DNA of 64,000 nucleotides. Source: Octopus vulgaris (Eukaryota). Each line of letters begins with the position of its first letter. The stretch's first letter is position 1. The notes below the pieces were generated by a model, which was not told where the DNA came from, ran no database searches, and saw nothing but the letters and a program-made list of their open reading frames with translations. Location: positions 4,650,001 to 4,714,000 of the forward strand of contig CATOCA020000001.1 of NCBI GenBank assembly GCA_951406725.2, given 5' to 3'. The translations under genes and the position numbers were made by a program. Shown in pieces: positions 23,192 to 51,784 of this stretch.

Positions 23192-23250
<59 letters not shown>

Positions 23251-29248: not shown

Positions 29249-29299
29249 CAGCTGGCTCCACCTCTGTTTGGACTTCATTGTCAACAAGCGTTAAAGTAA
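29249..29299 (-). pseudogene. Micro-exon 10 (TLTLVDNEVQTEVEPA), acceptor AA instead of AG
   Basis: tgtttcAA|51 nt open|gtgagt. Confidence 0.75.
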
Positions 29300-30081
29300 T
29301 TGAAACAAAATTTTCTAAATTTTACACTTTACAGAAAAATGTCTTTATCTTAATTAATAATCAAAATTTTGTTATTCTGTGACATTCCTGTCCTTGATGG
29401 TCAACTGGTGACCCTTACGGCTTGGGTCAACATTTTCATACTTTCTATAGGGATACCATGTAATAGCTCAATATTCAGGTCCACAACTAAATAGACTAAC
29501 CTTCATATATCTCCCTATTAAGACATCCCACATAATCTAAGAATCACTCTATTAAGATATCTCCATAATCTAATAATTATCTTATATAATTATCACTTGA
29601 TAACACTGATTATCTCTTAGCTTAATTTTCCCTTCCATCTATCGGAGCCCAATCTACGATATGGCATTGTTCTCTCACCTCCAGATTTCCCTAATGAACT
29701 CCCAGGAAGAATGGGACGAAATGGTGAGTAATGATCTTGAAATGTTGAGCCTAACAGTCACTTGGCAGTTTGCTGTGCTTGAGAACAACCACCGACCTAA
29801 ATAAAATCAATGTCCCCCAACAATGCCTCCCCCGCACATGTCGCATTCTCCTCCATTCTCCCTCATGTACCTACATGCACATATGATGCCCTACTGTTTC
29901 TCATCCCCAACCATATCCACCATTCCTCCTTCCTCTACTACCTTCCTTTCACAAACTTATAAACTAACCCTCCCTCCCAGATCACTCTCTGTCGTATTTC
30001 ACCATTTTCTCTATCGACACATGAGGCAGCCATAGAAACAAAGGCAAAATAGACATTTGTGGGCTGTTATTTTATACTTAT

Positions 30082-30136
30082 CAACTGGCTCTGCTACCAT
30101 CGTCTGCACTTTATTTCCCTTTAAGCTTTAGATTCT
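30082..30136 (-). pseudogene. Micro-exon 9 (..NKVQTMVAEPV), donor AT, 55 nt frameshifted
   Basis: tatttcag|55 nt|ATaagt. Confidence 0.7.
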
Positions 30137-30272
30137 CTGAAATAAATATTATTTACACTAAAACCATTTTATCATTACCAATAATCTATATTCTGTTATT
30201 GTGAGAGATTCCTATCATCAATGGTCTACAAGAGTTCACACAGGTTTCGGTCAATATTTATATACTTTCAAC

Positions 30273-31337
30273 AGTGGGCCCATTATTTATGCCCTCCACA
30301 AAATTGATTGGCATTCCTAAATCTCCGCTCTCAATTAAGACATCTTACATATCTCATATACTTCTCACGTATCCTCCTTAATAAAGTAGATGAGGTAATG
30401 GCAAACTTGATAGAAATCAAAAAGGTAATGTTGATTTATACTCACCAACTGGTTCTACTTCTGTTTCAACTTCATTGTCAACAAGTGCTGGCGTCTCTGA
30501 AATAAATATTCTAAATTTTACCCTTCATAGAAAAACATCTTTATATTTCTTAATAATCAAAATTTTATTCTTTGTGAGGTATTCCTGTCGTTGCTGGTCA
30601 GCTGGTGACCAGTACTGCTCGGGTCGACATTTTCATACTTTCTACAGTAATACCATGTAATAGCTCAATATCCAGGTCCACAACTAAATAGACTCACCTT
30701 CCTATATATCCCAATTATGGCATCCTACATAATCTAACAATAACCCTATTAAGACATCTATATAATCTAATCATTACCTTCTTTAATTTTTCATTTGAAA
30801 ACACTGATAATCACCTAGATTAATTTGCCCTTTCATCAGTCGGAGCCCTATCAATGATTTGGCCTTGTCTTATCACCTGCAGATTTCTCTAATCAACATT
30901 CTTCTCCTCTTCTCATTCTGACGTCAATGAAACTGGACTCCAAACATCTAACCATAAACGCATGTCACAATACATCAAGTAGGATTAATATACACCTGCT
31001 CTCTTTTTAAAAGGTTACTGCTGGTAATCTTTAACCTTAAATCCCCACATCACAATTCATCAGAATAGGATATGATTCTGGAAACATTTGAAGATATTTC
31101 AATGTCATTAATCCTCCTTAATAATCAGTTATTTTCAGGTGAACAATGTTTGCTCCTAAGCAAGTGGAGCAGAAAGTGATATCAGGTATCCCAAAACACG
31201 GTACTCTTGTATAGAAACTCATTATCTGTACACACACAAACACACAAGCACATACACACACGCACACACGCATACACATACATATTTATGTGTGTGTGAA
31301 TGTATATATGTATATGTATGTATATATAGATGTATGT

Positions 31338-31385
<48 letters not shown>

Positions 31386-31390
31386 TTATA

Positions 31391-31441
<51 letters not shown>

Positions 31442-32618
31442 GTTTATGTATCATATATGTATATATATATATATATGAACGTTCATTTACTTATTACAGC
31501 AAAGGAATTATATTTGGAATAGTACTGACTTTCAAGAATATATAAGCAAGACAGAGACATACATCAAACTGGAAGCGCCAAATTTATTTTGCACTAGCAT
31601 TAAAGACCCATCGTTGCCGTGTCATAGTGCTAGTGCATGTATATATGTGTATATATTTGTGTACATATTACATTTACATCTATAAATATACATCTACACA
31701 TAAAATGCAAAATACAAAGTTATATCTTGATATCGCTAGTGATAACAATACTCAAAATATATAACAGACTGGAATTTTTAGCTCTTCTTATTTCTCCGCA
31801 TTTTATACTTTATAGACAATAGTCTTTTCTTTAATTTAACTTTTTACTATCCATCTGGACTATTCCATTTCTGCTCGCTAATTTTATTTTTAATTTATTC
31901 CCATTCATGTGAAACCACTTATTCTAGTTCAAATCATTGATGCAATTTTATACCAATTGCGACTTTTCCTTTTGTTATGTTACGATTATATTACAATTTA
32001 GTTTGATTTTAATTATTACTTACTACATATAATTCAATTGTTATTATTATTTTTATTGTTAAAATGAAAGCATCTGACATAAAATAGAGAATTATTTTTG
32101 TTTCACTTTTAACACGTAATACTGAAATAGTGGAGAAGATATGATATTGCTATGGGCTCGCTCTAGGCAAGAAGTTGAACATTTTCGTTGGCCCATGACA
32201 CTCCCCGGACCCTAAGTAAGGCATATGTAAAATCTGAATGAAATTGGTTGTGTAGTTCTCAAGTTTTAGGGAAACACACAGACAGACAGACAGACAGACA
32301 CACATTCTCAGTTTTAAATATATAAAGTTTATATATGTTGTTTTTTAACCGCATCACAGTTTGTGCCTTGATCCGATTGCCTCAAGACGTGTCTCTCAGC
32401 AAGCTACCGTACCATTGTCTTCAAGCTTTTGGCATGATTTCTCCTGCTATTTGTAACTTCACTTGTTTCTGCTGATCATTTACAAACGATACACAGCACT
32501 ACTTATTCGATTTAAACCACACTTTTGCCCCAAATGATGAGTTAATCCAGTCTAACCAGAATTATTTGCATATCCTTCTGATCTCTGCTTAGTATTATTA
32601 AGTAATCCATGAATGCCT
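30273..32618 (+). repeat. Recent segmental duplication copy A (copy B 36254-38545)
   Basis: Nearly identical ~2.3 kb including a micro-exon, Helitron-like element and RT fragment. Confidence 0.95.
30446..30496 (-). CDS. Micro-exon 8 (ETPALVDNEVETEVEPV), recent duplicate of micro-exon 7
   Basis: tatttcag|51 nt|gtgagt; lies in a near-identical 2.3-kb duplication. Confidence 0.8.
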
Positions 32619-33480
32619 TCTTGTTGTAATTCACTTGAGCCCTTTCTGCTGATATAAGTAACATCCTCATAACCATCTCAAACCAAATGGCTCATATTGT
32701 CAACATACGGCTATTCAAATTCCTGTCTCAACACGATGCCAGTGTGTTGTAACATTTTCTGTGATGAACCGCATTGTGAAATCATTATAGCAGCTCATAA
32801 TCAGATCTTTAATCTCCTATTAATCGTTCATTGCTTCCATCAACCATTTCTATGGTATAGAACAATAAGCATTAGCCAGATCAGGCCATACATCTTTCAA
32901 ATCAGTTATATTCTCCTTTCCTTCTTGCATTAATTCCAGATTGAAAATGCTTGTTGCGCACACGCTGGAGGTCCGGTGATTCCAGTCCTCCGGACACATT
33001 TACTCAGATAGCCATTCTTTTATAGATATGTAGCTGATATCTAAGCCCATGTAAACCTTACCATTCTCTATTGAAATTGTCCTGCTGCCACTTGCTTTGG
33101 TAAGTAAACACTTTCTTGTATGTACAGGTCATCAATCGGTTCACCTTTATACCCCAAATCTCTTCTTCCAGGTTATGCTTATAACATAACTGAGTACAAC
33201 GTTTCTATACGTTCTGTGGTACAGCATCACCTCGTGTTGCACTCTAAACTCTTACTTTCTTTACACAACTCTCAACTTCTTTCTTCCTCTTTCTTCATGA
33301 AATCACTAAGCTGAAATATTTTGATTCTTCGTTTCATTCGGCATTTCAAACTGTCCATGGCTGGGAATGGTTGATTTCGCTTTAGGTCACTGTACATCTC
33401 TTGTATATTCCCATCATTTTCCATGCCTTATAGCCTGCGACACATGGCATCAACAAACACCATTCTCGTACCATTACAAT
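32335..33480 (-). mobile_element. Heavily decayed R2/NeSL-like RT fragment (homologs ~38275-38545, ~40480-41400, ~43960-44880)
   Basis: Minus-strand remnants DLKDVWPDLANAYCSIP / LNVVWLDQSNA.GC, EMLLRSAD, AFMD. Confidence 0.7.
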
Positions 33481-33550
33481 GGTTCTTTAGGAACTGCTAT
33501 CTAAAACTATTTACCTTATTTAAATATATGGCCTGATCTTGTTTGTTGTT

Positions 33551-33596
33551 AGCACAACGTTTCGGCTGTTATACCCTGCAGCCTTCATCAGGTGCT
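33551..33596 (-). ncRNA. Minimal type-I hammerhead ribozyme
   Basis: AGCAC-CUGAUGA-A-GGCUG(CAGGGUAUAA)CAGCC-GAAAC-GUU^GUGCU; stems I and II 5 bp each, palindromic AACGUU. Confidence 0.8.
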
Positions 33597-33650
33597 TTGG
33601 GGAAATTCCTAAGGTATTTTTCGATGTTGTTGTTATTATTATTATTATTA

Positions 33651-36006
33651 CTTTTTTTTCTTCTTTCAAATTCTCTTCCATTTCTTGCCGAGTGTCTTCC
33701 CGACTCCTAGGGCAAAGAAACTCATAGTATACATTGGTAAGCCATTAAACCAAACTCAGTAGTTCGTTCATTTTTTTTTTTTTTAAAGTTAAATTAAAAT
33801 ACATGAGCAGCAACAGTTCTCACATCGACAATGCTCTTCTCAATACGTGTGATGTACCAGTTAAGACAATCTTTTGCACTTCTTGCAGGGTTGGTAAGCC
33901 AGGGATCATTCTCATATAATTTTCGGTTCCCTTCTTGATCATTCCTAGTGCTCCTACGATCACTGGTATTGTAACTGCCTTGAGATGCCACATTTTCTCA
34001 ATTTCAATGAGTAGGTCTTTATATTTTCTGAGCTTGTCAAACTCTTTCGCTGAGATATTATGATCACAGGGGATGCTCATGTCGATCAATAAGCAAACTT
34101 TATTGTTTTGGTCTTTCACAACAATATCTGGTTTATTGGCCTTGATGGGTCGGTCTGTATGTACTGGAAAGTCCCACAGAATGGTTACATTTTCTCCTTC
34201 AGTTACAGCCTCAGGGTGGTGATTATACCACTTGTCGGCAGTTTTGATATTGTAATGCCGACTTATTAGCCAGTGGAGATATTGGCCAACTCTGTCATGT
34301 CTTAATTTATACTCCACTGGTGCTAAGACTTTACATCCAGAGATTAGGTGGTCCACTGTTTCAATCATGTCGTTGCAGAATCGGCATTTTGGGTCTGCTC
34401 CATTTTTCATCACATTGGCCTGGTAGTTCCGGGTTAATAGGCTTTGATCTTGAGCAGCCAGGATGAAACCATCGCTCTCTGCTTTTAGCCCTGAGCTCCG
34501 TAGCCACTGATGGGTTTGCTTCTGGTCAACATCAGCTTGTTTGATGCGGGTCACATATTTGCCGTGCAGAGGTTTCTCCTCCCACCTATCAGCCAATTGC
34601 TCGTGCGCTTTCTTCATTGGCATCATTTTTACCTTCTTTGCAACAATAGTTGCCCTACTTCCCTCGGGTTGTTCAGTTTGGGTTTCCTGCACGAGATCAA
34701 TAGCAAATTTTTTGCTTTCCTTTATGATAGAATGAAGCTTCTTTCGTCTCTCGTGATTTTCCACGAGCTTTAGCATCCAGTCATTCGATATTTCGAGATA
34801 TTTGGCCAGTCCAATTGTGGTTGTTTTGTAAGCTAGTTCAAATTGGATCAGGCCTCGACCTTCTTGGGCTCTGGGAAGGTAAAGGCGATCTACGTCTGCC
34901 TTTGGGTGGTGCATCCTATTACAACTCAGCAGCTTGCGTATTTTTCTATCTATATTCTTTACTTCACTCATATTCCAGTTCAACACATCGTAGCTATAAG
35001 TAACAACTAGAACTGCTAAGGAATTTATAGCTAACACCTTGTTACGTGCATTTAGTTCAGATTTCAGGACTGCACGAACTCTCCTATAACATTCCTTCCT
35101 GATTTTCTCTTTCATGCTTGCATGCTGAATACCAGACCCTTCATTTATCCCTAAATATTTGTATGTTTGTTCTTGCTCAAGCTCTCTTATGACTGTGTCA
35201 ACATCTAACACGACTGAATTTGTGGTCTTCACTTTACCTTTCTGGAAAGTGGCCTTGGCACACTTCTCAAGTCCAAACTCCATCCCGATGTCATCGCTGA
35301 ATGCTTTCATGGTGTGCAATAGGCCTTCAAGTTCATTATTGTCTTTACCATAAAGTTTTAAGTCATCCATATAAAATAGATGGCTTATTTTTTTATTGGC
35401 AATTTTATACCCATACCCTGTTCTGTTTAATTCACTTGTAAGTGGTATTAGGGCTATGCAGAATATTAAAGGTGAAAGTGAGTCACCTTGAAAAATTCCA
35501 CAGTTGATGTTTATATTTTCTGAGGCAAGTACTCCATTAGAGTGGTATAATTGGAGATTCGTATTCCACAACGACGTATTGTGCTTCAGGAAGTTTGAAA
35601 TCACAGGGGAAATTTTGAAGATGTCCAGCGATCTCAAGATCCATGGATGCGGTATACTGTCGAAGGCCTTTTTATAGTCAATCCATGCGGTGCTGAAATT
35701 TCTGCGCTTGTTGTGACAGTTCTCAAGGATCATACGATTGATTAGCAGTTGATCTTTGCATCCGTAAGAGCCTCGGCGGCACCCTTTTTGTTCAATGAGG
35801 AGAATATCGTTCTTCTCCATGAATGCATATGTTTTCTCCGCCAGGATAGATGTTAGGATTTTATACGTGGTGAATAGACAGGTTATAGGCCTATAGTTTT
35901 TTGGAAGGTTGGTTTCGTTATTCTTTGGGAGTAGGTAAGTAATGCCACGTGCTAACCATTCAGGTGTTTTCTTTGGGTCTCTCATAATTCCATTGAGCAG
36001 CTGAAC
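33651..36006 (-). mobile_element. 5'-truncated non-LTR retrotransposon, R4/Dong-like clade (RT + CCHC finger + restriction-like endonuclease)
   Basis: Uninterrupted ORF to 33820: NYRPITCL, EQKGCR, IDYKKAFDSI, GIFQGDSLSP, YMDDLKLY, YKYLG, CRFC..ETVDHLISGC, RHD, KPDIVV..IDMSIP..KLRKY; (TAA)n on both sides. Confidence 0.95.
33820..36006 (-). CDS. Reverse transcriptase / RLE endonuclease ORF (N-terminally truncated)
   Basis: ORF track 33820..36096; first ~30 codons are (GAT/AAT)n microsatellite. Confidence 0.9.
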   Translation of the reverse strand, partial: VQLLNGIMRDPKKTPEWLARGITYLLPKNNETNLPKNYRPITCLFTTYKILTSILAEKTYAFMEKNDILLIEQKGCRRGSYGCKDQLLINRMILENCHNKRRNFSTAWIDYKKAFDSIPHPWILRSLDIFKISPVISNFLKHNTSLWNTNLQLYHSNGVLASENININCGIFQGDSLSPLIFCIALIPLTSELNRTGYGYKIANKKISHLFYMDDLKLYGKDNNELEGLLHTMKAFSDDIGMEFGLEKCAKATFQKGKVKTTNSVVLDVDTVIRELEQEQTYKYLGINEGSGIQHASMKEKIRKECYRRVRAVLKSELNARNKVLAINSLAVLVVTYSYDVLNWNMSEVKNIDRKIRKLLSCNRMHHPKADVDRLYLPRAQEGRGLIQFELAYKTTTIGLAKYLEISNDWMLKLVENHERRKKLHSIIKESKKFAIDLVQETQTEQPEGSRATIVAKKVKMMPMKKAHEQLADRWEEKPLHGKYVTRIKQADVDQKQTHQWLRSSGLKAESDGFILAAQDQSLLTRNYQANVMKNGADPKCRFCNDMIETVDHLISGCKVLAPVEYKLRHDRVGQYLHWLISRHYNIKTADKWYNHHPEAVTEGENVTILWDFPVHTDRPIKANKPDIVVKDQNNKVCLLIDMSIPCDHNISAKEFDKLRKYKDLLIEIEKMWHLKAVTIPVIVGALGMIKKGTENYMRMIPGLPTLQEVQKIVLTGTSHVLRRALSM

Positions 36007-36023
36007 TATTATTATTATTATTA

Positions 36024-36079
<56 letters not shown>

Positions 36080-36253
36080 TTCATCATCATCATCATTATT
36101 ATTCACGTCACTGCCTGAAATCAAACACGGAATCTTGGGGTTTTAGAAGCATGCTGTACGCCAGGGGGAGAAATTATGAACCAAATTTTAGGGATTATTT
36201 TCCTATATTTCCTTAATGCAGGTTCCAATATGCTACTCATCTCTACTTCGGAT

Positions 36254-37334
36254 AGTGGGCCCATTATTGATGCCCTCAACAAAATTGATTGGTATTCCTA
36301 AATCTCCGCTCTCAATTAAGACATCTTACGTATCTCATTTACTTCTCACGTATCCTCCTTAATAAAGTAGATGAGGTAATGGCAAACTAGATAGAAATCA
36401 AAAAGGTAATGTTGATTTATACTCACCAACTGGTCCTACTTCTGTTTGAACTTCATTGTCAACAAGTGCTGGCGTCTCTGAAATAAATATTCTAAATTTT
36501 ACACTTCATAGAAAAACATCTTTATATTTCTTAATAATCAAAATGTTATTCTTGTGAGGTATTCCTGTCGTTGCTGGTCAGCTGGTGACCAGTACTGCTC
36601 GGGTCGACATTTTCATACTTTCTACAGTAATACCATGTAATAGCTCAATATCCAGGTCCACAACTAAATAGACTCACCTTCCTATATATCCCAATTATGG
36701 CATCCTACATAATCTAACAATAACCCTATTAAGACATCTATATAATCTAATCATTACCTTCTTTAATTTTTCATTTGAAAACACTGATAATCACCTAGAT
36801 TAATTTGCCCTTTCATCAGTCGGAGCCCTATCAATGATTTGGCCTTGTCTTATCACCTGCAGATTTCTCTAATCAACATTCTTCTCCTCTTCTCATTCTG
36901 ACGTCAATGAAGCTGGACTCCAAACATCTAACCATAAACGCATGTCACAATACATCAAGTAGGATTAATATACACCTGCTCTCTTTTTAAAAGGTTACTG
37001 CTGGTAATCTTTAACCTTAAATCCCCACATCACAATTCATCAGAATAGGATATGATTCTGGAAACATTTGAAGATATTTCAATGTCATTAATCCTCCTTA
37101 ATAATCAGTTATTTTCAGGTGAACAATGTTTGCTCCTAAGCAAGTGGAGCAGAAAGTGATATCAGGTATCCCAAAACACGGTACTCTTGTATAGAAACTC
37201 ATTATCTGTACACACACAAACACACAAGCACATACACACACGCACACACGCACACACACACATATTTATGTGTGTGTGAATGGATATATGTATATGTATG
37301 TATATGTAGATGTATGTTGATATATATATTTATA

Positions 37335-37373
<39 letters not shown>

Positions 37374-38545
37374 GTTTATGTATCATATATGTATAAATAT
37401 ATGAACGTTCATTTACTTATTACAGCAAAGGAATTATATTTGGAATAGTACTGACTTTCAAGAATATATAAGCAAGACAGAGACATACATCAAACTGGAA
37501 GCGCCAAATTTATTTTGCACTAGCATTAAAGACCCATCGTTGCCGTGTCATAGTGCTAGTGCATGTATATATGTGTATATATTTGTGTACATATTACATT
37601 TACATCTATAAATATACATCTACACATAAAATGCAAAATACAAAGTTATATCTTGATATCGCTAGTGATAACAATACTCAAAATATATAACAGACTGGAA
37701 TTTTTAGCTCTTCTTATTTCTCCGCATTTTATACTTTATAGACAATAGTCTTTTCTTTAATTTAACTTTTTACTATCCATCTGGACTATTCCATTTCTGC
37801 TCGCTAATTTTATTTTTAATTTATTCCCATTCATGTGAAACCACTTATTCTAGTTCAAATCATTGATGCAATTTTATACCAATTGCGATTTTTCCTTTTG
37901 TTATGTTACGATTATATTATAATTTAGTTTGATTTTAATTATTACTTACTACATATAATTCAATTGTTATTATTATTTTTATTGTTAAAGTGAAAGCATC
38001 TGACATAAAATAGAGAATTATTTTTGTTTCACTTTTAACACGTAATACTGAAATAGTGGAGAAGATATGATATTGCTATGGGCTCGCTCTAGGCAAGAAG
38101 TTGAACATTTTCGTTGGCCCATGACACTCCCCGGACCCTAAGTAAGGCATATGTAAAATCTGAATGAAATTGGTTGTGTAGTTCTCAAGTTTTAGGGAAA
38201 CACACAGACAGACAGACAGACAGACACACATTCTCAGTTTTAAATATATAAAGTTTATATATGTTGTTTTTTAACCACATCACAGTTTGTGCCTTGATCC
38301 TATTACCTCAAGACGTGTCTCTCAGCAAGCTACCGTACCATTGTCTTCAAGCTTTTGGCATGATTTCTCCTCCTATTTGTAACTTCACTTGTTTCTGCTG
38401 ATCATTTACAAACGATACACAGCACTACTTATTCGATTTAAACCACACTTTTGCCCCAAATGATGAGTTAATCCAGTCTAACCAGAATTATTTGCATATC
38501 CTTCTGATCTCTCCTTAGTATTATTAAGTAATCCATGAATGCCTC
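36254..38545 (+). repeat. Recent segmental duplication copy B
   Basis: See copy A; the identical spurious 61-aa ORF appears at 31637 and 37563. Confidence 0.95.
36427..36477 (-). CDS. Micro-exon 7 (ETPALVDNEVQTEVGPV)
   Basis: tatttcag|51 nt|gtgagt, phase 1-1. Confidence 0.8.
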
Positions 38546-38592
38546 AGCTGAAGGTAAAATTGATAGAATTCAATTAGATATTTTATACTCAC

Positions 38593-38664
38593 CAACTTGC
38601 TGTGATGCATCTTTTGAAGTAAATGCCTCTGTCTGGACTTGCTTGTTCTGAGACTTGGGAAACC
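38593..38664 (-). CDS. Micro-exon 6 (FPKSQNKQVQTEAFTSKDASQQV)
   Basis: tatttcag|72 nt|gtgagt, phase 1-1, open. Confidence 0.8.
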
Positions 38665-41600
38665 CTGAAATAAATATTTCAAGGTTTTTAAAATTTATTA
38701 TAAAATATTTTAAATCTAGATATTAATAATATATATTTTATTATTGTTGGAGTTTCTGATCATCAATGGGCAGCCTGTGTATGAACAGCTGTGTATGCTA
38801 CATAGTAGGGAAATATATGTTGTGAACACAGAGGACGTGTAAAGTCTTGAACAAAATGGAACCAGCATGCTCCACTGGATGGTCACTGTCAGTGTGCAGG
38901 TATAAAATGCTGACATGTTTTAAGATAAAAATCGAGTGTTATCACATGTATGTAGTACGCAAGACAGACGACTGTGCTAGTATGACCCTGTGATATGTAT
39001 GAATAAGATCAGCTGTATAAAGAGCACCGATCTGTAAATGTGGAGAAAACCTCAAGAAAACTGGAAGGAATTGTTGAGAAATGAGCTTCAGATCTTGAAC
39101 CTGAGAGTCAATCGGTAGAAAAGCGGGTATCTTTAAGAGACATATGTTCCTCGACCAATGGGGGTGGATAGTATCTCAGAATAGGACGTGTCTTGGGTAG
39201 AGACCGCCCATCAAATACATTTTAGAAAGAACATCAGACGATAAATGATGAGGATGTATTCGATTGTATTGTTATATGCAGCTAGTATTTATCTTGAAAG
39301 AGAAAGAGACAATGGTTTCTCAGCAGAAAACCAAAGTCATTACTTCGATAAAGACAATGCTTAGTGGATGGAACGATAAATTTAATGTTGTATCTAAGAA
39401 AAGACAACAGCAAAAATAAAAGTTTAAAACATTGTTAAAAGATATGAAGAGATAATATTTTGTAACAGCAACATCCGACATAATTCGTGATATAACAACT
39501 CAAATCTTCCTAATTTAACTAAAATATTGCACACAGTTCTACAACACCATTTCCAAAACGCTTCCGTCCCATTAATTGTCGATAAACACAGAAATAGCTA
39601 CACCAGTCGTCTCGTTAGCTGAAAACACTGATATACACCAGTTGAGCTTACTACTATAGAGAGAAATCCGTGATTATCTGGCAATGTTTAACTTGACCAT
39701 TACAAAATTCGTTAACCCTAGAAGAAGTTCAGATGTACAATTACAAACTGCACGGTGGAGAGATATCATATTGTACCCTGACTGCTACCACAATCCGCCG
39801 TACACAACAAAACGCAGCATTTTAGCAGTTCCTTGTGTGATGATTAACAAAATGAAAGAATGGAATATCTCACGGGTTAGATCTGTATTTTTCACTGAGG
39901 CTATAACCAGCTACCTCTGGTTATAGATCTATTAAAGGGCTGAGTAGAAATTAAACTACATGTGGTAAGATTTCTCTCTCCGACACATAATAGACATACA
40001 AAATTGAGATAAGCCCGCCCCAGCACGAATTTTATCAGAGAATGAAGTAAATAATTATCGAATAAACAAAACAGAAACGACTTTTTACTAAATTAGATAA
40101 ATCAATTAATTACTGCACACCAATTTCTAATTGCTGGACAACTTCAAACAATCTGACATCGCGACATCAAGTATCCTGAAACATTGTACACTTGCACAAA
40201 ACCTTATTAACTACATTTAACTGGTCATCTACATACTATTGCATAAACATATCCGAAATGATACATAATAACTGACAATTAAGCATATATAAGCATGACA
40301 CAAATATAGATCAAACTGGAAGCATTGAATCTTACGTTTGCCAGCAAGTTTCGAATATTCTCTTTCTTTTAACCCATTCCCATGTTTTCGTTTTCATTTT
40401 AATGCCCTTACAATTATTGGAGAAAGAGGCAGCGCACCAATGTCGAAACTTTTATAAGTTTAAACCTAAACGTATGCATAGTTTCTCCTGCTACTTTGAA
40501 CTTCACTTTGTTCTGCTGATCTTCCACAAGTAACAGATTGTATTATTTATTTGCTTCAAGTCAAATTCTTGACAAAGTAATCAGTCCACCCAGGCTATCC
40601 AGAAATATTTGCATAACATTTTGGTCTCTACATAGTATTTTTATGTCATCCATGAATGTCTTGTCTTGTTCTTTCACTTGGGTCATTTCTTTTGAGCAGA
40701 CTACTGATCTAAGTAACATCTCGAAACTGAAGGATTAATATTGTGCACCCTGCTCCAATTCCGATGACAGTCCCTGTAAAATGGTTTGTAATGAGCTGCC
40801 TTTTGAAATTGTTATACCAGCTCATCATCAGACCTTCACACTGCCCCAGTATGTCAAAGAAGTTCATTGATTTCATCAATAAATTGTATGGTACCCAACC
40901 ATATGCTTTAGAGCGATCAAGGCATACAACATTCCAATTACTTCAATTCTTCTTTGTGTGTTGATCCCAGTTTGACATCTCATGTCCTTCAAACCAAGAA
41001 AGTCAGGGGATTCCAGTCATCTGCACACTTTCCATCACATATCAATTATTTTGTATTTGTATAGGTGATCTCTTAGCATGTACATCCACGTAAAGCATGT
41101 CATTAAGGATTGAAACTAATTTCAATTGGCCAATTAATTGTGATTCAGATTCCTTTCATAAGTGAACTCTTTCTGCCTTATATCAGTCATAAATCCCTTC
41201 AATTTTATACTACAAACCCTTACTATTATATAATGCTTATATAATGCAGTTTTTGCTCTTGCCTCCTTGTTGCTGCAATCTCTCAGTTAAAATTTTAATT
41301 CCTGACTTTCTTAGAGGTTTTATTAGAAAGACATCAACGTTTCTTTTGCTTGTACCACAATAAAATGCACCTAGGACACTTTATCAAATGGTTTGTTTTA
41401 GGAAATTATACCCTCATATAAAACCTAGAATGGTTAACTGAGATTCGTCTGCACTCCGATCAAGAGGTGGGAGCCTGGAAATCAGACGATAAAGGATGAA
41501 GAGATAGTCAATTATTGTATAGTATCTTGCAACCAGTATCTGTTTTGAAGTAAGAAATATAGACAACAACTATCACAGAAGTAAGTTGGATGAGGGCAAT

Positions 41601-42118
41601 GTTTAGCGTATGTAATGAAATATCTGTGAAATAAATCAGACTGCTTATACTTGAAATACATTTCAAAGTACTTTTTTAGAAATATCAGCCAAAATAACAA
41701 TATTAATCTATCAGCAAACATAGTAGAAAATGTAAAACAAAGAGAAATGTCATTAACACGAATGTTTATCGCTAAACAACTACGAATATTAGTTTTCTCT
41801 TCCAAAGTGAAATATAAAATCTATTGTCTTCGAAGTTATCCATTTTACAAACCATGCTCACCACATCGGATATTTTGTGAAATTACAATAATATCGATAT
41901 GTTTTATTGGGTAAACTGGCAATATGACCATTCCGAAATATAATAATATCTGTTTCAACACACGACTTCACATAAAAAAATCTTGCACAACAAATATTTA
42001 ATAGAATTATTATGCATCAAACTTTTCAAATGCAAAATTTGGATTGGAAGATGTTGTCAGTCATTCAGTAAAGTTAAAATTTACAGTAATCGATAAGGTA
42101 ATGATATTTTATACTCAT

Positions 42119-42181
42119 GATCAAATGATTCTGTTTCAAGCATAGGAAAGTTTGGAGACAGTATTGTTTGCGACTATGTGT
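42119..42181 (-). pseudogene. Micro-exon 5, dead (DT*SQTILSPNFPMLETESFD)
   Basis: Acceptor ttcCG, donor ATgagt, in-frame TAG; homologous flanks. Confidence 0.65.
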
Positions 42182-42284
42182 CGGAAAAATATATTTTCAA
42201 GTTTTACATTTTACACTATAATGTGATTATATCTATTAATCAAAAATATTCCATTACCGTAAGATATCTTTATGTTCAATTGTC

Positions 42285-43295
42285 AACGGCTGACCACTAT
42301 GCTTTTGGTCAGCACGCTTTACAGATTCATTACAACAAAACTCTATATTAAGAGCCACCAAAATATTAACTAATTTCCTATCTTTACTCTCTGTATTCAG
42401 ACATCAAATATAATTTAACAATATTGTAATTATTTAATTTCATTGTCTCTTTATAACAATATTTTGCTTTTAGTTTTCTCTTTCCTTCCGTATTTCTCTG
42501 ATTTTCAGGGAGTTTAAGGCACAGGTATAAAGAGAGGATAACTCAACTACTGAAAAACAGTGCTATAAAGAGATAATTACGTGAAGTATTTGCAATATTG
42601 TTCAATTATGTTGGATGTCACAGTACATTGCATAGATATGTGAAAGTTGGTCTCAAAACGAAGCTGGATTGGACCAATCGCATAAATCTCTTCAACGACA
42701 CCTATTTACCTGCAATTTACAACAGGTGTGAAAGCTGGTACACAATGAAGAGGGAGGAAGTGAGTCTGATAATGGCCAAAATCACAATCGAAAAATCGAC
42801 GTTATGGAATGTTGCTAAATTTGCACATCAGGGGTGAGGCGATCATAGAGAAATCAGGTGTGAGAGACATCATCACTAAAAACTTATGGCAAAATTTCAG
42901 ATGGGACAGGTAACCAGCTCACTGAAAATATTTAGAGATGCACAGTTGTTGAGAGTTGTATACACGAGCAGAGGAGGTCACTGAGAGCGAATCCAAAAGT
43001 GAGTGTTTGACGAAATACGACATGCTACGTAGGTGAGAAGGTCAAGATGAAGACAGAAGTGGAGGATGCACTGTGTTCTCTGGTGTCGTCAATACACTCA
43101 GTCAGTCGACCATGGTCAAGGTGGTATTTCTGTCACATCTATGACATAGCGTTTTCACCTCTACCGTAGTAAACGTCACGAACCAAACTTCTCGTTTTCT
43201 GCTCAACTCCAATGTCAAGCAAGTGGATGACCATATATCTATCTACAAAAACTGGTCACACCACTTACCGTTAGACAGAAAGTACCTGCTCTCTG
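42285..43295 (+). repeat. ~1-kb duplication (second copy ~45800-46810) carrying a decayed RTE fragment
   Basis: High identity by eye; RINLFNDT.LPAIY.RCESW resembles the RTE LFN..VLP.MLYG.E.W motif. Confidence 0.85.
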
Positions 43296-45615
43296 TGAAA
43301 TATTGCTTCTGGTAATCTTTGATTTTAACTGCCCACATCAACCTGCGTATTTGTGACGCATCAATGACATGGCGTTTTCACATCTACAGTAGAACTCACT
43401 AATCAAACATTCTTATAATTTTCTGCTCACCTCCAATGTCAACAAGGTTAATCATCAAATATCGATCTTCAAATACATTTCACACCACTTCATTTTAGAC
43501 AACTAGCACCTACTCTCTGCGTGAAACATTGCTGCTGGTAATCTTTAAGTTTAACTGCTCTCACCAACGTTCGCCAGAATGTCTTCTGATACAGAAGATG
43601 TGTGAAACCTCCTTACGGAAACAGTTTTCTTTCCAGATGAGTAATAATTTATTCTACTAAGATGTTGGCGAAATTGGTATCAGGTACCCCAAAAACTACA
43701 CCGCCGTTTATCTACACATCATTGCATAAAATGCATCCGAAATGGTACATAATAGAACTGATTCTCAAAAATACATACGCAAGCCATGCTAGAAACATCA
43801 TATACTATATTTACTTTGAGGTTTTCACAAATCTATTGCTTATAAACCATTATCGATTTTTACCATGATCTCAATATCTCTATTCTTACTAGACAATAGG
43901 GAAGCCTACCAGCATACGAAATACTTACAAATTTGTCATTAAAATATGTCATGGTTTCTCTTGATACGTTGTATATCACTTGTTTCTGCTGCCCTTTGAC
44001 AATTAAAAAACCGTATTATTTATTTGCATTAAGTCTTAATCTCGACCAAGGATTAAATCCATTCCGGTTGTCCAAAACTATTAGCATATTCTTTTGATCT
44101 CTTTCCCTTATTTGTATGTCATCGATGATGTTTCTTCAGCCATATCTGCTGATCTGAGTAACATCTCATTAACAAAGACTGACATTTTGCATCCTACTCT
44201 AGTTTCACGCCAATCCTACTCTCTGTATAATATGTGTGTAACGAATAGCATTTGGAAATTGTTAAACCAACTCTTCGTCATATTTTTAAAATCCTCCTGT
44301 ATGTAAACGAAGGCCATTGCTTTTCTCGATGGTTTATGTTGTTCACATCCCTAAGCATTAGACTGATCCAACCATACAACATTCAAATCACTTCTATTTT
44401 TCTATGTATGTTGGTCCCACTTTTACAAGGCATGTCCCAAACACTCAGGATGTCAACGGATTCTTTTGCATTCACACTTTCAGTCTCATTAGAGTTATTT
44501 TGTCGATGTGTAGTTGATCTCTGACCATGGAAATCTTAGCAATCATAATTGCAATCGGTGCCAACTTGCGAATTAGTTTCGCTTTAGCTTAAGTTGTACG
44601 CAAAATCTTTCTCTCTTCCTCCAGCCATCAATCACACCAACTTTATACCCGAAAGCTCCACCATTATGTGATGCCTACAACAAAACCTTGTACAAGACTT
44701 GAAACTTTCTAATGTACAGCCTCACCTTGCCTTATACCCAAAGATAACTACTTCTTTCCTGCTGCAATCCTCAAGCTCAAATTCTTCGTTCCTGATTTTG
44801 TTGGACATTTTCTAAGAGAGACGATAATATTTCACATGCTTTGCAACAATAAAATGCACCTAGAACCCTTTAGAAAGTGGTTGGTGTCAGGAATGGCATA
44901 GCACTACATGAAAGCAGTGATGTTTAAGTGAGATATGTTCCTCTACGAATGAAGAAGGGAAGTAGTTCTGAAGAAGAACTGACTTGGACAGCGACAACTC
45001 ATCTAGTCCATAGGAGCCTGGAAATCTAACGATAAGTGTCGGGGTTGTTACCTGTGATTCACTTGCATCGTGCAACCTGTATCTTTCATGAAGTAAGAAA
45101 GGCAGATACCGATTATCACAGTAGCAAAGAAATGTTTTCTATTCGGGAAAAGACAATGTGTAGTGGATGTAATAATGAAATTACTACCAGTGTAACATAA
45201 CAGAGAGTTTACACTTGGAACGCATTTCATTGTAATTCTTCTAGATTATGAGAAGCATCCGTTTAAATAACAACAATAACAATAATAACCTACGAGTGAA
45301 TGTGGTAAAAAATGTGACAAAAACGGCTGTCATTAACTCTAAATTTATGTTCCTAAACAAATAGCTTAGTTCTATCTTTCTCAAAACTATACTAAATATA
45401 TTCCCGTTTCAATTTTCCATGTTACAAACCACGCTAACTTCGTTGGATATTTTGTGAAATTTCAATAATATCGATATATTGAATAGAATTATTATACAAC
45501 AAACCTTTCGAATCTAATTAGGGATAGAATCTGTACTCAGTCGTTCTAACATACAAAAGCTCGAGATAAATTGAAATGTATAGAAATCGGTAACTTAATA
45601 TTATTTCATACTTAC

Positions 45616-45702
45616 ATTCTTCCTCTGATTCATCTACTCCAGAAGATGATTGTAAACCGGAATCGGTACTGGCTCCGGGTACTATACTTGCTGTTGAATG
45701 TT
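45616..45702 (-). CDS. Micro-exon 4, Ser/acidic (EHSTASIVPGASTDSGLQSSSGVDESEEE)
   Basis: atttcag|87 nt|gtaagt, phase 1-1, open. Confidence 0.75.
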
Positions 45703-47082
45703 CTGAAATGAATATTTTCAAGATTTGCGTTGTATAGCATGATGTGCTTATCTTTGTTAATAATCTATATTTCACTATTGTGACTTATTTCTATTGTCAA
45801 TGGTCAACGGCTGACCATTATGCACGCTTTCAATATAACAAAACTCTATATAAAGGGCCACCAAAATATTAACTAATTTCCTCTCTTTACTCTCTGTATT
45901 CAGACATCAAATATAATTTAACAATATTGTAATTATTTAATTTCATTGTCTCTTTATAACAATATTTTGCTTTTAGTTTTCTCTTTCCTTCCGTATTTCT
46001 CTGATTTTCAGGGAGTTTAAGGCACAGGTATAAAGAGAGGAAAACTTAACTACTGAAAAACAGTGCTATAAAGGGATAATTACGTGAAGTAATTGTAATA
46101 TTGTTAAATTATGTTGGATGTCACAGTACATTGCATAGATATGTGAAAGTTGGTCTCAAAACGAAGCTGGATTGGACCAATCGCATAAATCTCTTCAACG
46201 ACACCGATTTACCTGCAATTTACAGCAGGTGTGAAAGCTGTTACACAACGAAGATGGAGGATGTGAGTCTGATAATGGCCCAAAGCACAATCGAAAAATC
46301 GAGGTTTGGGAGTGTTGCTAAATTTGCACATCAGGAGTGAGGCGATCATAGAGAAATCAGGTGTGAGAGACATCATCACTAAAAACTTATGGCAAAATTT
46401 CAGATGGGACAGGTAGCTAGCTCACTGAAATTATTTAGAGATGCACAGTTGTTGAGAGTTATATACGCGAGCAGAGGAGGTCACTGAGAGCGAATCCAAA
46501 AGTGAGTGTTTGACGAAATACGACATGCTACGTAGGTGAGAAGGTCAAGATGAAGACAGAAGTGGAGGGTGCACTGTGATCTCTGGTGTCGTCAATACAC
46601 TCAGTCAGTCGATCATGGTCAAAGTGGTATTTCTGTCACATCTATGACATAGCGTTTTCACCTCTACCGTAGTAAACGTCACGAACCAAACTTTTCGTTT
46701 TCTGCTCAACTCCAATGACAAGCAAGTTGATAACCATACATCTATCTACAAAAACTGGTCACACTACTTACCGTTAGACAGAAAGTACCTGCTCTCTCCG
46801 TGAAACATTGGATTTGGTAATCTTTAATTGTAACTGCCCACTTCTACGTACATCAGAATGTCATCTAATGTAGAAAATATTTGAAGACCCCTGAATGAAA
46901 TAGATTTCATCCCAAGTGAGGAATAATTAATTCTACACAGGTGTAGGAGAAAGAAATATCAGATGTCCCCCAAAACTGTTACCACCTAATTTACTTCATA
47001 TAAGTTCATGGTAAATTTACTATCAGTGAAATATGACAGAATCTTTATGGAAATCGATAAGGTAATATAAATTTAAACTCAC

Positions 47083-47133
47083 CATGAAGTTTTCTACTGA
47101 GTAGTCTCCTTCTGGCTAAATTTCTTCTATAAT
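47083..47133 (-). CDS. Micro-exon 3, basic (DYRRNLARRRLLSRKLH)
   Basis: atttcag|51 nt|gtgagt, phase 1-1, open. Confidence 0.65.
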
Positions 47134-47639
47134 CTGAAATGAATATTTTCACGTATTACATTTTATTGTATGAATTGGTTATATCTCTTAATCTATATTT
47201 TGATATTCTTCGACATTTATATCTTAAATGGTCAACGGATGACCACTATATCTTTGGTGAGCGACTCATACTGTTTACCACAATATTTAGAGCCTTCAAA
47301 ATATGCGCAAATTTCCTACATATCCCCTCTGTATTTAGATATCCAGCATAATTTATCAAGATTGAAATTATTTAATTCAATTACCTCTTTATAACGGTAT
47401 TCTTCATTTAGTTATGCCTTTCCTTTCGTATCTCCCTGCATTTGAGCGAGTTTAATGTACAGATATAAGAGAGCAAAACTAAACTAATGAGAAACAGTGT
47501 TATAAAGAGATAATTACGTGAAGTAATTGCAATATTGTATAAATTATGTCGGATGTCGCATTACAGTGCGGTGATATATATCCGTAATCAAGCGATCAGA
47601 GAGAATTCTGGTGAGAGCGACATCATCACCAAATGCAGA

Positions 47640-48010
47640 AGGAAGAAGTGTTGTATTACTCTTGAATAGTCTCCTGATGTTATATGGGCAGCATATCTTT
47701 TGTATCTTTTCGGAGAGGCCTTTCACATAGGGTAGACAGACTGTGGACAGTTCATTGGTTTCATCCTCTTTTTTCGTCATAATTGGAGGGGATTGTATGT
47801 TTTTGGGTAGTTGTTGCTTAATAGATTGTTAATTAGCTTGATCATTTCTTCGTGGTGGGTTTCACGATCGACACTTATATTCTTAGTCGATGTTTTAGGC
47901 ACTGAGCAATCCCTCTCTTTACACTGTATGGATGGTAGGAAATGAAGTTGAAGTATCGTCCAGTAAAGGTCAGTTTGCGGTATACGGATGTCCTGAATCC
48001 ATAATTTATT
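47640..48010 (-). mobile_element. Penelope-like RT thumb/linker fragment
   Basis: VYRK.T.TG..NF.SYHPYSVK.G, LLSNNYPK, VCLPYVKGLSEKIQKIC..YNI...FKSNTTL. Confidence 0.8.
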
Positions 48011-49006
48011 GTATTGTATCTTGCAGCAAATATTTATCCTGAAGAGAGTGAGACAATGGTTGTCCCAGCAGGAAACCAAAGTCTCCTTCTTGGACAAAGA
48101 CAACGTTTAGTGCATGTAATGATAGATTTACTTTCAGTGAGAAAAGTATGTTCACAGTTGGAACAAATTTCATTGTAACTCTGCGAGATTATGAGAGACA
48201 TCTGCCTAAACAACAACAACAATAACAATAACTGCCTATCCATAAACAGTCAGAATGAAAAACAAACAAAATCATAATTCTCCTGCTTACACTTAACCCA
48301 TGGTCTGCTATGAGAATCTAATAAAAATTGGTGTGTTTAACAATATTTAGTAATTAAATTTTGTCATTATTAACTCTGGCTAATTCTAGAGGACATTTAT
48401 ATCATAAATCGCAATTTTTGAACTACAAAAATATCGACTGTTTTGAAAAGTTCTTTTTTCTTTTCTTGCATTTCCCTTCTATATCATTCATTGATATTTC
48501 ATACACATTCGCATTTGATACTCTAGTTTCAGAAAAACTAAAATCTTTATTATTGCAATTGAATAGAAAGAGATAAATATGCTTTTTCTCAGCGATCCCC
48601 ATTTGGGACTTATCGAAACAATTATCATAATTTCCAAAATAAATCACATATGAAGAAAATTTAAATACTATGTATTATTTTAACTCCTGAGACACCAGGC
48701 AAAGCCAAAAATATGAATACAAAATTGGCAGTTAATGGTTAAACAACATTATTAGTTTCATGATCAAATGACAAAATCAACTCTATTGTGTCCTCTATTT
48801 TCAACACTATTACCAACCGTGCTAACTTGAAGCGATATTTTATAAACTTTCAGTAATATCGATATCTTTAACAGAATTATTATACAGCTAATCGTTCAAC
48901 TTGAAAGTAGGAGTGGAATCCATTTTCAGTTATTCTTTCAAACACAATATACCCAGGTAAATTAAATCTTATAGAAATCAATTGGGAACTCTTATTTTAT
49001 ATTCAC

Positions 49007-49071
49007 CACTTTGCTCGGATGTAGGCTCTAATAATTGTAAATCTGTTTGCACTCCCTTGTCTTTGGAGATA
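49007..49071 (-). pseudogene. Micro-exon 2 (..KDKGVQTDLQLLEPTSEQS), acceptor TG, 65 nt (frame-breaking)
   Basis: tatttcTG|...|gtgaat; homologous flanks; apparent internal deletion. Confidence 0.7.
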
Positions 49072-50458
49072 CAGAAATAAACATTTACAAGTTTTACATT
49101 TAATAATAAAATTTCTTTATCTTTATTTTTATTAAACTCTATCTTGTTATTGTGAGACATTCAATTCCTGTTGTTACTGGTCAACTGTTGACCATTATGG
49201 TTTTGGTCAATATTTCTGTACTTTCTAAAGTGGTCCCATGTAATAGCCCAATATGTCCACAATAAAACAGACTAACATTCCTAAATCCACCCTCTCCCTC
49301 TCTTTCTCTCTCTCTCTCTCTCTCACTCTCTCTCTCTAAAAACACATTAAATATTCTAACAATGTTGCAATTATCCCGTTTAATTAACACTTGATAACAG
49401 TTTTCTCTTAGCTTTGTCTTTCTCTTCTTATAACTGTGCCAAATCTATGGCATGGCACAGTCCTCTCATCTCTAGAATTCACTAATCAACATTCCTCTCT
49501 AGTTAAGTAAAACTGAGGCCATAAAGATGTCCTTTATGTGTATACACTCCACTCCGCAACACTGTCTGTCCCCTAAAAACATCTCCACAAGCCAAATTGC
49601 ATACACACTTCCCCAACATGATCCCTAACAAGATATAAAATGTAAGGTAAGGGTACATGATGATGCTATGACAAAATTTGAACGCAACAATCAAGACCAA
49701 AGGGTGAAACACTCAGAAAACTGTGCCTCTTTTAGCATTAATATCATCTAAAATCTAACAAGTGTGAGAAAAAGAATGACTATATGGATGGTAAATGCTG
49801 TTCAAACAACGTAATAAGTGTATATTATATATAGTTACAAACAAGGATTTGTGAGATCAAGTCACACAGGGAACTCATATTTAATTCCTATCTTTATATT
49901 TTATGTCAACGCCAATATTTTGTTTAAATGCAAACAGATGTTCACGGTTCAATACTAAATCTAACATTTAATAAAATTAAGTTCATGATGAATATTCTTA
50001 TACAGAGTTAATATTTAATTAGAATTTTCTAATTTGCAACTACAAAATGTATTCTAACCAGAGACATTCAGGGTACACAACCCCAGAAAATACAAAATAT
50101 TACGACAGACATCTGGCTACATAACAACATCAAGAATAACCTATCAGAAAACTTACGAAAGATCTTAGTAGAAAAACAAACAACTATTTTATTAATTCAC
50201 GAGTTTACACCTAAAATAATAAATTATAGTTCCATAGAAGACAATATTAACTCTTTTGTGGCTTTTAATTTATCCATTTTACCAAACATGTTAACCATGA
50301 CTTTATGAAATTTCATATTTTTAATACAATTACTTTAGAGCTAACCTTTAAATGGAAATTAGAAATGGGATTTGTTCTCCACCATTCTAATACGCAAAAT
50401 AACTGAGGTGGATGTACAATCTATAGAAATTAATTAAGATCTCTAATTTTAAACTCAT

Positions 50459-50509
50459 CAACTGTCTCTGCCACAGTCTGCACTACCTTCTCTTCAAACT
50501 TTGGACTCT
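50459..50509 (-). pseudogene. Micro-exon 1 (ESPKFEEKVVQTVAETV), donor AT instead of GT
   Basis: atttcag|51 nt open|ATgagt; flanks homologous to the other micro-exon units. Confidence 0.75.
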
Positions 50510-51643: not shown

Positions 51644-51784
51644 CATCTCCAGTTCTGCTCGTTACAGGTTTCCCTGCACTTCAGACATCGTTTAAGAGAG
51701 ATTCTCGAACATGTTTCACATGTGACAAAATGCCCGCATGGAAGAAATTTTATTGTGGCCGTTTTATTTTTGCACCACAAACAT
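51644..51784 (-). CDS. C3HC4 RING finger exon (MIB/IAP-type), with a probable +1 G near 51672
   Basis: ccacag|a CLWCKNKTATIKFLPCGHFVTCETCSRISLKRCLKCR...|gtaaga; C-x2-C..PCGH..C-x2-C..C-x2-C. Removing one G gives CRKPVTSRTGD and a phase-1 end matching the downstream exons. Confidence 0.9.

Follow-up and report, generated by a model that had tools for sequence, protein, structure and literature searches.

Does the linker of an octopus ankyrin-RING gene carry a ladder of docking sites for the dimeric protein LC8, each on an exon of its own? The question is raised by a stretch of 64,000 nucleotides of Octopus vulgaris DNA (assembly GCA_951406725.2, contig CATOCA020000001.1, positions 4,650,001 to 4,714,000; 'the window' denotes this whole stretch, and positions are counted from its first letter). 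On its minus strand ten duplicated units, each an intron plus a micro-exon (ME1 to ME10), run from 50509 to 29249; the exons are in phase 1 and most spell V-Q-T, one motif per exon. We consider it fairly probable that these ten units make up the linker of an octopus ankyrin-RING gene, that V-Q-T has been conserved across the gene family, and that the motifs are likely to dock dimeric LC8.

The motifs listed in the original prediction all lie on the minus strand where it placed them: EKVVQTV (50483), DKGVQTD (49052), NKQVQTE (38638), DNEVQTE (36451 and 29273), DNEVETE (30470), NKVQTM (30109) and SQT (42173). Six VQT and one VET are thus listed, one per duplicated phase-1 unit; a seventh VQT, at 41454, is outside any unit. 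The pattern [KNR]-x-V-Q-T occurs six times in the window, against a mean of 0.30 and a maximum of 4 in 200 local shuffles. This excess is not independent evidence, because the motif copies are duplicates of one unit; it reflects duplication, and conservation among homologues is therefore the real test. AG/GT ends and an open phase-1 frame are retained by half of the units, namely ME3 and ME4 (no motif), ME6 and ME7 (VQT) and ME8 (VET), whereas ME1, ME2, ME5, ME9 and ME10 are all broken at a splice site. Judged by splice ends and frame, ME6 and ME7 are indeed the only two VQT copies in intact exons, as had been claimed. SQT does not belong to the series as a variant of the motif: within a dead unit, it follows a stop, is shifted by seven codons from the common register and is not homologous. 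The letters of NKVQTM are present, but they form a motif only through one extra base at 30110, which three of the four sequencing runs lack (the fourth has no cover there); at the ME9 position six other copies of the cassette described below read K*VQTM.

A search of the genome (G000) for the RING exon gave at least 56 matches, and micro-exon units were collected from the sequence downstream of 53 of them, mostly 10 kb each, so that long ladders are cut. This yielded 192 distinct units, of which 132 were retained on the criteria of intact ends, an open frame and a complete flank, two types with a shifted register having been removed as well; 99 were unique, comprising 77 linker and 22 death-domain exons. 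Numbering from the anchor glutamine as 0, the 77 linker exons have V at −1 in 52, Q at 0 in 54 and T at +1 in 51; D or E stands at −4 in 56 and K or R at −3 in 55, and E or D is enriched at +2. The codons at the core vary, with all four used for V, both for Q and three for T. In pairwise comparisons between 12 lineages, the proportions of non-synonymous and synonymous change (pN/pS) are 0.16/0.64 for the core and 0.48/0.51 for the rest of the exon. With three relic lineages kept (all 15 lineages) the values are 0.37/0.67 and 0.56/0.57, and the jackknifed core ratio is 0.26–0.41 without and 0.58–0.72 with the relics. V-Q-T is the lowest of 14 three-codon windows with 12 or 15 lineages alike. 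Conservation of QT among the homologous micro-exons had been set beforehand as the point on which the idea could fail; VQT proved to be their most conserved window, with silent change free. The motif is also present in gene models of O. vulgaris, O. sinensis and O. bimaculoides.

A neutral origin, with one ancestral VQT exon copied many times and its in-frame copies tolerated as spacer, would agree with the loss of half of the window's units, with a within-lineage pN/pS of 0.86, with the near-neutral remainder of the exon and with the finding that seven of the nine cassettes are broken as assembled. We regard it as very unlikely, since the silent sites of the core have diverged (pS ∼ 0.65) while its residues are kept, the core is the lowest of the 14 windows, and the motif persists in three species.

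The ME8 unit arose recently by duplication of the ME7 unit, with which it agrees at 916 of 927 aligned bases of the unique part, and the two differ at the anchor, VQT against VET. The difference looks like decay: E occupies the anchor in only two of 25 DNEVxTE exons, both in damaged copies, those of the window and of C31:4.32 Mb, the latter lacking the start of its terminal exon. Haplotype duplication was considered for the ME7/ME8 pair and is not needed, as other cassettes have one to five such units; the depth of DNA run X13 is too mixed to help. In a lineage on C29 (L103, L107, L110, L150, L153, L157, L161, L175–L177) the anchor has been lost many times separately with the exon in frame (VKT, VQM, VKM, VQA, TQA, IKT), which could reflect relaxed selection or positive selection against LC8 binding. 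ME1, with its dead AT donor and an open EKGVQTV frame, is carried along in paralogues L019, L068, L114, L137, L139, L141, L143, L144 and L148; these may offer a neutral control for the selection test.

How well do the motifs fit LC8? The consensus given in PMC3078936, [DS]-K-x-[TVI]-Q-[TV]-[DE], is matched in full by ME2 only; ME7 departs from it with E at −2 and N at −3. The anchor [TVI]-Q-[TV] is present in the intact ME6 and ME7 and in ME1, ME2, ME9 and ME10 of the broken units, and ME8 has E at 0. By inspection, favourable flanks under the rules in PMC6607443 (polar at −4, large at −3, D, E or P at +2) are found in ME2, ME6, ME7 and ME10; ME1 has a hydrophobic residue at +2. Supplement 1 of PMC12057147 lists SDKGVQTP (1.6 µM), YDKGIQTD (0.62 µM) and VDNGLQTE (13.1 µM) among measured binders, the first two being nearest to ME2 and the third to ME7 and ME10; no peptide with E at 0 appears in that table. 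SDKGVQTP is the LC8 site of ZFPM1 and shares six of eight residues with ME2, as does VDNGLQTE (Nup159 QT5) with ME7 and ME10. The proteins are unrelated in both cases; the likeness is convergent and no proof of binding.

The genome holds an intact LC8 gene of 89 residues, 93–99% identical to most of the homologues listed. By composition, the linker (99 residues, 23% of them order-promoting) is rich in S, E, T, Q and P. In a complex prediction, the LC8 dimer of octopus paired with two chains of P0186 residues 1–36 (DNEVQTE) scored 0.71 and one of three controls 0.52, which is no evidence either way. Because V-Q-T is conserved under silent change and the motifs closely resemble measured binders, they are likely to serve as LC8 docking sites; this part of the original prediction stands on anchor conservation and near-identical published binders, with binding predicted by sequence.

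It is distinctly unlikely, in our estimate, that V-Q-T has instead been kept for another partner or modification, such as a phospho-threonine, an SQ/TQ-like kinase site or another groove-binding hub. The selection test reports constraint on residues and not on a partner, and ME7 is off consensus at two positions with only ME2 matching throughout. On the other hand, conservation falls precisely on the positions of the LC8 anchor (−1, 0, +1), with the enrichments at −4, −3 and +2 noted above, and V at −1 is exchanged for T or S, as LC8 allows. The closest known systems are the multivalent LC8 clients ASCIZ/ATMIN, Nup159, Chica, 53BP1 and KANK1 L2, which, as described in PMC6607443 and PMC12057147, resemble the octopus linker in having several [TVI]-Q-T anchors 17–23 residues apart in a polar linker. 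The octopus candidate sites differ from those described there in lying one to each duplicated symmetric exon, homologous to a death-domain exon, and in varying in number between paralogues (1–7 in the window's subfamily). Among titles and the beginnings of abstracts we found no published LC8 ladder on a RING protein, nor one built from one exon per motif.

The origin of the motif exons can be traced within the family. A pattern made from the splice flanks only gave 123 matches in the genome and none in the control. Among the matches listed are both motif exons and 72-base exons that start a death domain, in the same codon register, with L-[HLQ]-[RSK] of the death-domain exon occupying the V-Q-T position. 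Judged from flanks and register, the micro-exon units and the first death-domain exon of the octopus family are homologous codon for codon, and we infer that the motif exons arose as spare copies of the latter (the tree is unrooted). ME3 and ME4 group with the death-domain exons as separate relics. The family's second death-domain exon was not found in the window with eight family proteins at E < 0.05; a propeller exon stands there instead. The features of the locus are collected in Table 1.

Table 1. Exons, micro-exon units and a mobile element of the window.
Feature	Position	Strand	Remarks
Short ankyrin-region exon	60628..60664	-	37 nucleotides; AG/GT; peptide as in family protein P0221
Ankyrin exon ANKa	55864..56073	-	Pfam Ank, E 3.9e-9; joined to ANKb in 3/4 putative RNA runs
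Last ankyrin exon ANKb	54097..54272	-	Homologue: last ankyrin exon in the Mind bomb 2-type gene of this genome
C3HC4 RING exon	51644..51784	-	Mind bomb first-RING type; Pfam zf-C3HC4_3, E 1.5e-8
ME1	50459..50509	-	EKVVQTV; donor AT, dead; lesion common to many paralogues
ME2	49007..49071	-	DKGVQTD; acceptor TG and 7-base deletion here; intact in paralogue C31:4.004 Mb
ME3	47083..47133	-	In-frame, no motif; falls with death-domain exons in tree
ME4	45616..45702	-	In-frame, Ser/acidic, no motif; ME4-type to ME6 joint in 4/4 runs
ME5	42119..42181	-	Dead unit: broken ends and stop; SQT out of register
ME6	38593..38664	-	Intact, NKQVQTE; 72 nucleotides; length and register as death-domain exon 1; spliced joints found
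ME7	36427..36477	-	Intact, DNEVQTE
RTE-type LINE reverse transcriptase frame	33820..36102	-	Between ME7 and ME8 units; Pfam RVT_1, E 3.4e-27
ME8	30446..30496	-	Intact, DNEVETE; recent duplicate of ME7 unit
ME9	30082..30136	-	Dead unit: AT donor; in other copies a stop precedes VQT
ME10	29249..29299	-	DNEVQTE; acceptor AA here, AG in 5/8 copies
Terminal exon	21229..26084	-	∼ 1,610 codons; predicted to encode NHL-like propellers; as assembled, frame broken near 25701 and 23345

Upstream of the micro-exons the gene has an ankyrin and RING head, with three more ankyrin exons found by tblastn 4–12 kb past the end of the window. The RING has all eight zinc ligands of the C3HC4 pattern and shares 22 identities with the first RING of the genome's Mind bomb gene versus 14 with its C-terminal RING. 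All 27 family RINGs that could be scored (34 proteins, seven of which gave no match to the search pattern) are likewise closer to the first. That Mind bomb gene, on C26, encodes MIB_HERC2 domains, ankyrins and two RINGs; L142 (C26:2513932-2516270) is this two-RING gene, and its C-terminal RING ends in C-H-M-C-R. By this homology of the last ankyrin exons and the first RING, Mind bomb 2 is the source of the octopus family's ankyrin and first-RING exons. It resembles Mind bomb 1/2 in the order of ankyrin repeats and first RING and differs in what is lost: none of ten MIB_HERC2 matches in the genome lies on C31, the family models begin with ankyrins, and the family has a single RING, without Mind bomb's coiled coil and C-terminal catalytic RING. 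Instead it has the motif ladder followed by a death domain or propellers. Database models of the three octopus species annotate this 'MIB2-like' family as ankyrins, RING, linker and death domain (Pfam Death is above cut-off in family protein P0182), and the models that match this locus (P0040, P0187) are without any micro-exon. Public annotation is corrected in both respects, since the 'MIB2-like' ligase genes are without the pairing and catalytic part of Mind bomb and the models of this locus miss every micro-exon. We found no description of an octopus ankyrin-RING family among titles and the beginnings of abstracts, a scope outside which lie genome-paper supplements and most subscription papers.

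Is the protein a ligase? A RING is there, as the original prediction had it, but the word ligase is weakly founded: the RING matches the first RING of Mind bomb, and bioRxiv 2024.03.01.582834 reports that MIB1 dimerises and transfers ubiquitin only via its coiled coil plus last RING, the first being inactive. The E2-contact pattern of MIB1 RING3 (Pro, a hydrophobic residue and Arg at the last Cys pair) is complete in eight of the 27 family RINGs; the window's RING keeps the Arg only, ending in C-L-K-C-R, and its three closest paralogues end in C-L-K-C-G. By analogy with MIB1, the RING of this copy is likely not a working ligase. An active RING ligase, with dimerisation and activity tuned by the regulated inclusion of LC8-site exons, therefore appears unlikely to us, first-RING type in 27 of 27 and the end of the window's RING both speaking against it. 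Its attractions are that eight family RINGs end in C-P-V/M-C-R like active RINGs, that many TRIM RINGs are described in PMC7752041 as needing dimerisation, and that all exons are symmetric in phase 1. Further points on both sides come from spliced sequence.

Runs X3, X4, X5 and X15 were taken as RNA, a guess based on splice joints that DNA run X13 lacks. In these putative RNA runs ANKb is joined to the RING exon in two of four as joints. Joints from ME4-type exons to ME6, and from ME6 to ME7/8, occur in four of four, ME7/8 to ME10 and ME10 to the terminal exon in three of three, and ME8 directly to the terminal exon in two of three; the DNA run has none of the last three types. Loose ends of the RING exon continue with ME2-like exons. 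Contigs of ME2-like type in two runs lead back to the RING end of another paralogue, skipping ME1. A joint from the RING exon or ME2 to ME3 or ME4 is not among the 13 joints listed, which says nothing about its absence. At the ANKb–RING joint (54097-54098 / 51784) there are either two donors one base apart or a paralogue difference, and in one run ANKb is shortened by use of a second acceptor at 54237.

Runs X3 and X4 each contain contigs with ME10 and contigs lacking it, as regulated inclusion would have it. However, the ME10 acceptor is AA in three of eight copies and AG in the other five, and because the copies differ in this way both forms are explained without regulation; exon skipping in the RNA contigs may reflect different gene copies. 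In ME10 of the window an in-frame AG 15 bases upstream is a candidate acceptor. True alternative splicing is best suggested by the O. bimaculoides models of one cluster, with four, three and two VQT motifs; two models of another cluster are one exon apart. These models favour the active, splice-tuned ligase to that extent, but they are annotations only.

The terminal exon has nine genomic copies, 98–100% alike, and derives from an intronless octopus family of stand-alone proteins, of which P0003 is one block on C25. Evidence for NHL propellers is weak but consistent (profile matches at E 0.003-0.13; Atlas 0.93 to clusters in which 34% of members carry NHL); Pfam NHL gave no match in the terminal exon or the family proteins scanned, and a profile comparison of the propeller family with P0163 gave no homology. 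No full-length RING-propeller protein was found, a RING being present in 0 of 35 matches of 1405–4010 residues. The nine cassettes contain 2 (window), 2, 7, 3, 2, 1, 2, 4 and 2 intact VQT exons. The longest ladder, at C31:3165488-3198067 (L115–L119), has five tandem ME7-type units with ME6 and an intact ME10, giving seven intact VQT exons, and its terminal exon, as assembled, is broken at codon 357. The terminal exon is open at C31:2778691 (1611 codons) and C31:9042976 (1613 codons), both without an ankyrin-RING head within 63–69 kb, the former 3 kb behind an assembly gap. Four of the nine cassettes lie behind an ankyrin-RING gene, with four different RINGs. The window's head is 88–93% like the death-domain gene at C31:4.00 Mb; the window gene is therefore a chimera, joined between ME2 and ME3. 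The resulting gene resembles the TRIM-NHL proteins (TRIM71, Brat, TRIM2/3) in having a RING upstream and putative NHL-like propellers downstream, and differs in its ankyrin head, in several propellers within one exon, and in assembly by exon capture, not TRIM descent. Between the RING and the terminal exon there are only micro-exons, and neither a B-box nor a coiled coil turned up when the exons were scanned with Pfam.

The window's terminal exon stops after 134 codons as assembled, and the extra base near 51675 in the RING exon breaks the phase with the micro-exons. All three frameshifts of this copy are absent from the putative RNA runs (4/4, 3/3 and 4/4), and the copy either contains three single-base assembly errors or is decaying. 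Consensus errors where copies differ were considered for all three; they fit 25701 and 23345 and were not shown for the RING base, and the 25701 deletion, common to the C31:10.51 Mb copy, also fits inheritance.

If the V-Q-T exons are LC8 sites, as we favour, LC8 dimers would bridge two chains in parallel, one rung per motif, and the ladder would take over the pairing that the missing coiled coil once provided. Pairing would tighten, or avidity rise, with the number of rungs (PMC3078936 gives gains of 80- to 500-fold on dimerisation); the window copy would carry two. Most paralogues would have the death domain as paired output, and the window's subfamily NHL-like propellers; the paired protein would more probably be an adaptor than an active ligase. 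Gain and loss of exons between copies would be at least one determinant of valency, and regulated splicing may be another. We speculate further, and only tentatively, that spare death-domain exons became one-exon LC8 modules replacing the Mind bomb coiled coil, that their number, through duplication and splicing, dials the pairing of a variable family of ankyrin sensors, and that a mobile ladder-propeller cassette was grafted onto at least four ankyrin-RING heads to give a TRIM-NHL-like protein with a hub protein in place of the coiled coil. Should the motifs bind LC8, the family would offer one scaffold in natural versions with 0 to 7 rungs, each on its own exon. On such natural material one could ask in what way LC8 valency determines pairing and output, and by what route a short linear motif originates, here from a folded-domain exon, and multiplies.

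Several points weigh against the LC8 linker. The three relic lineages were dropped only after the tree had been seen, and including them halves the effect; the lineages are non-independent and may exchange sequence. Within young lineages the core is hardly constrained, with repeated losses of the motif (VKT, VQM, VKK, VQR, VET). Only seven of 19 motif-predicted peptides bound in Table 2 of PMC6607443, which also gives a hydrophobic +2, as in VQTV, as unfavourable. The RNA joints are not assignable to the window copy, given nine copies 98–100% alike: a paralogous RING exon differs from the window's by only two bases and the indel, and the end letters of ME4 in three of four runs do not fit the window but the copies at C31:3.16 or 10.50 Mb and 2.77 Mb. 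RING and cassette are linked by genome layout, five of nine cassettes having no ankyrin-RING gene on the same strand within 63–70 kb (for two of the five the search range crosses an assembly gap), and only two of nine propeller exons are open as assembled.

Minor features remain. The RTE-type long interspersed element (LINE) has a 760-codon open frame, is at very high copy in the DNA run and is covered in the putative RNA runs; this insertion also stands beside a unit at C31:9.05 Mb. Intronic homology blocks at 32432-33053, 40476-41082 and 43945-44535 were considered as death-domain relics and rejected; one of their frames reads like what we take to be a decayed reverse transcriptase. Two further intronic blocks, 26097-26867 and 39406-40115 (∼ 770 bases, 70% alike), precede the ends of cassettes. 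Within the terminal exon an in-frame (AGT)n microsatellite (window 23169-23271) encodes poly-serine, with lengths of 21, 22, 24 and 35 in four copies.

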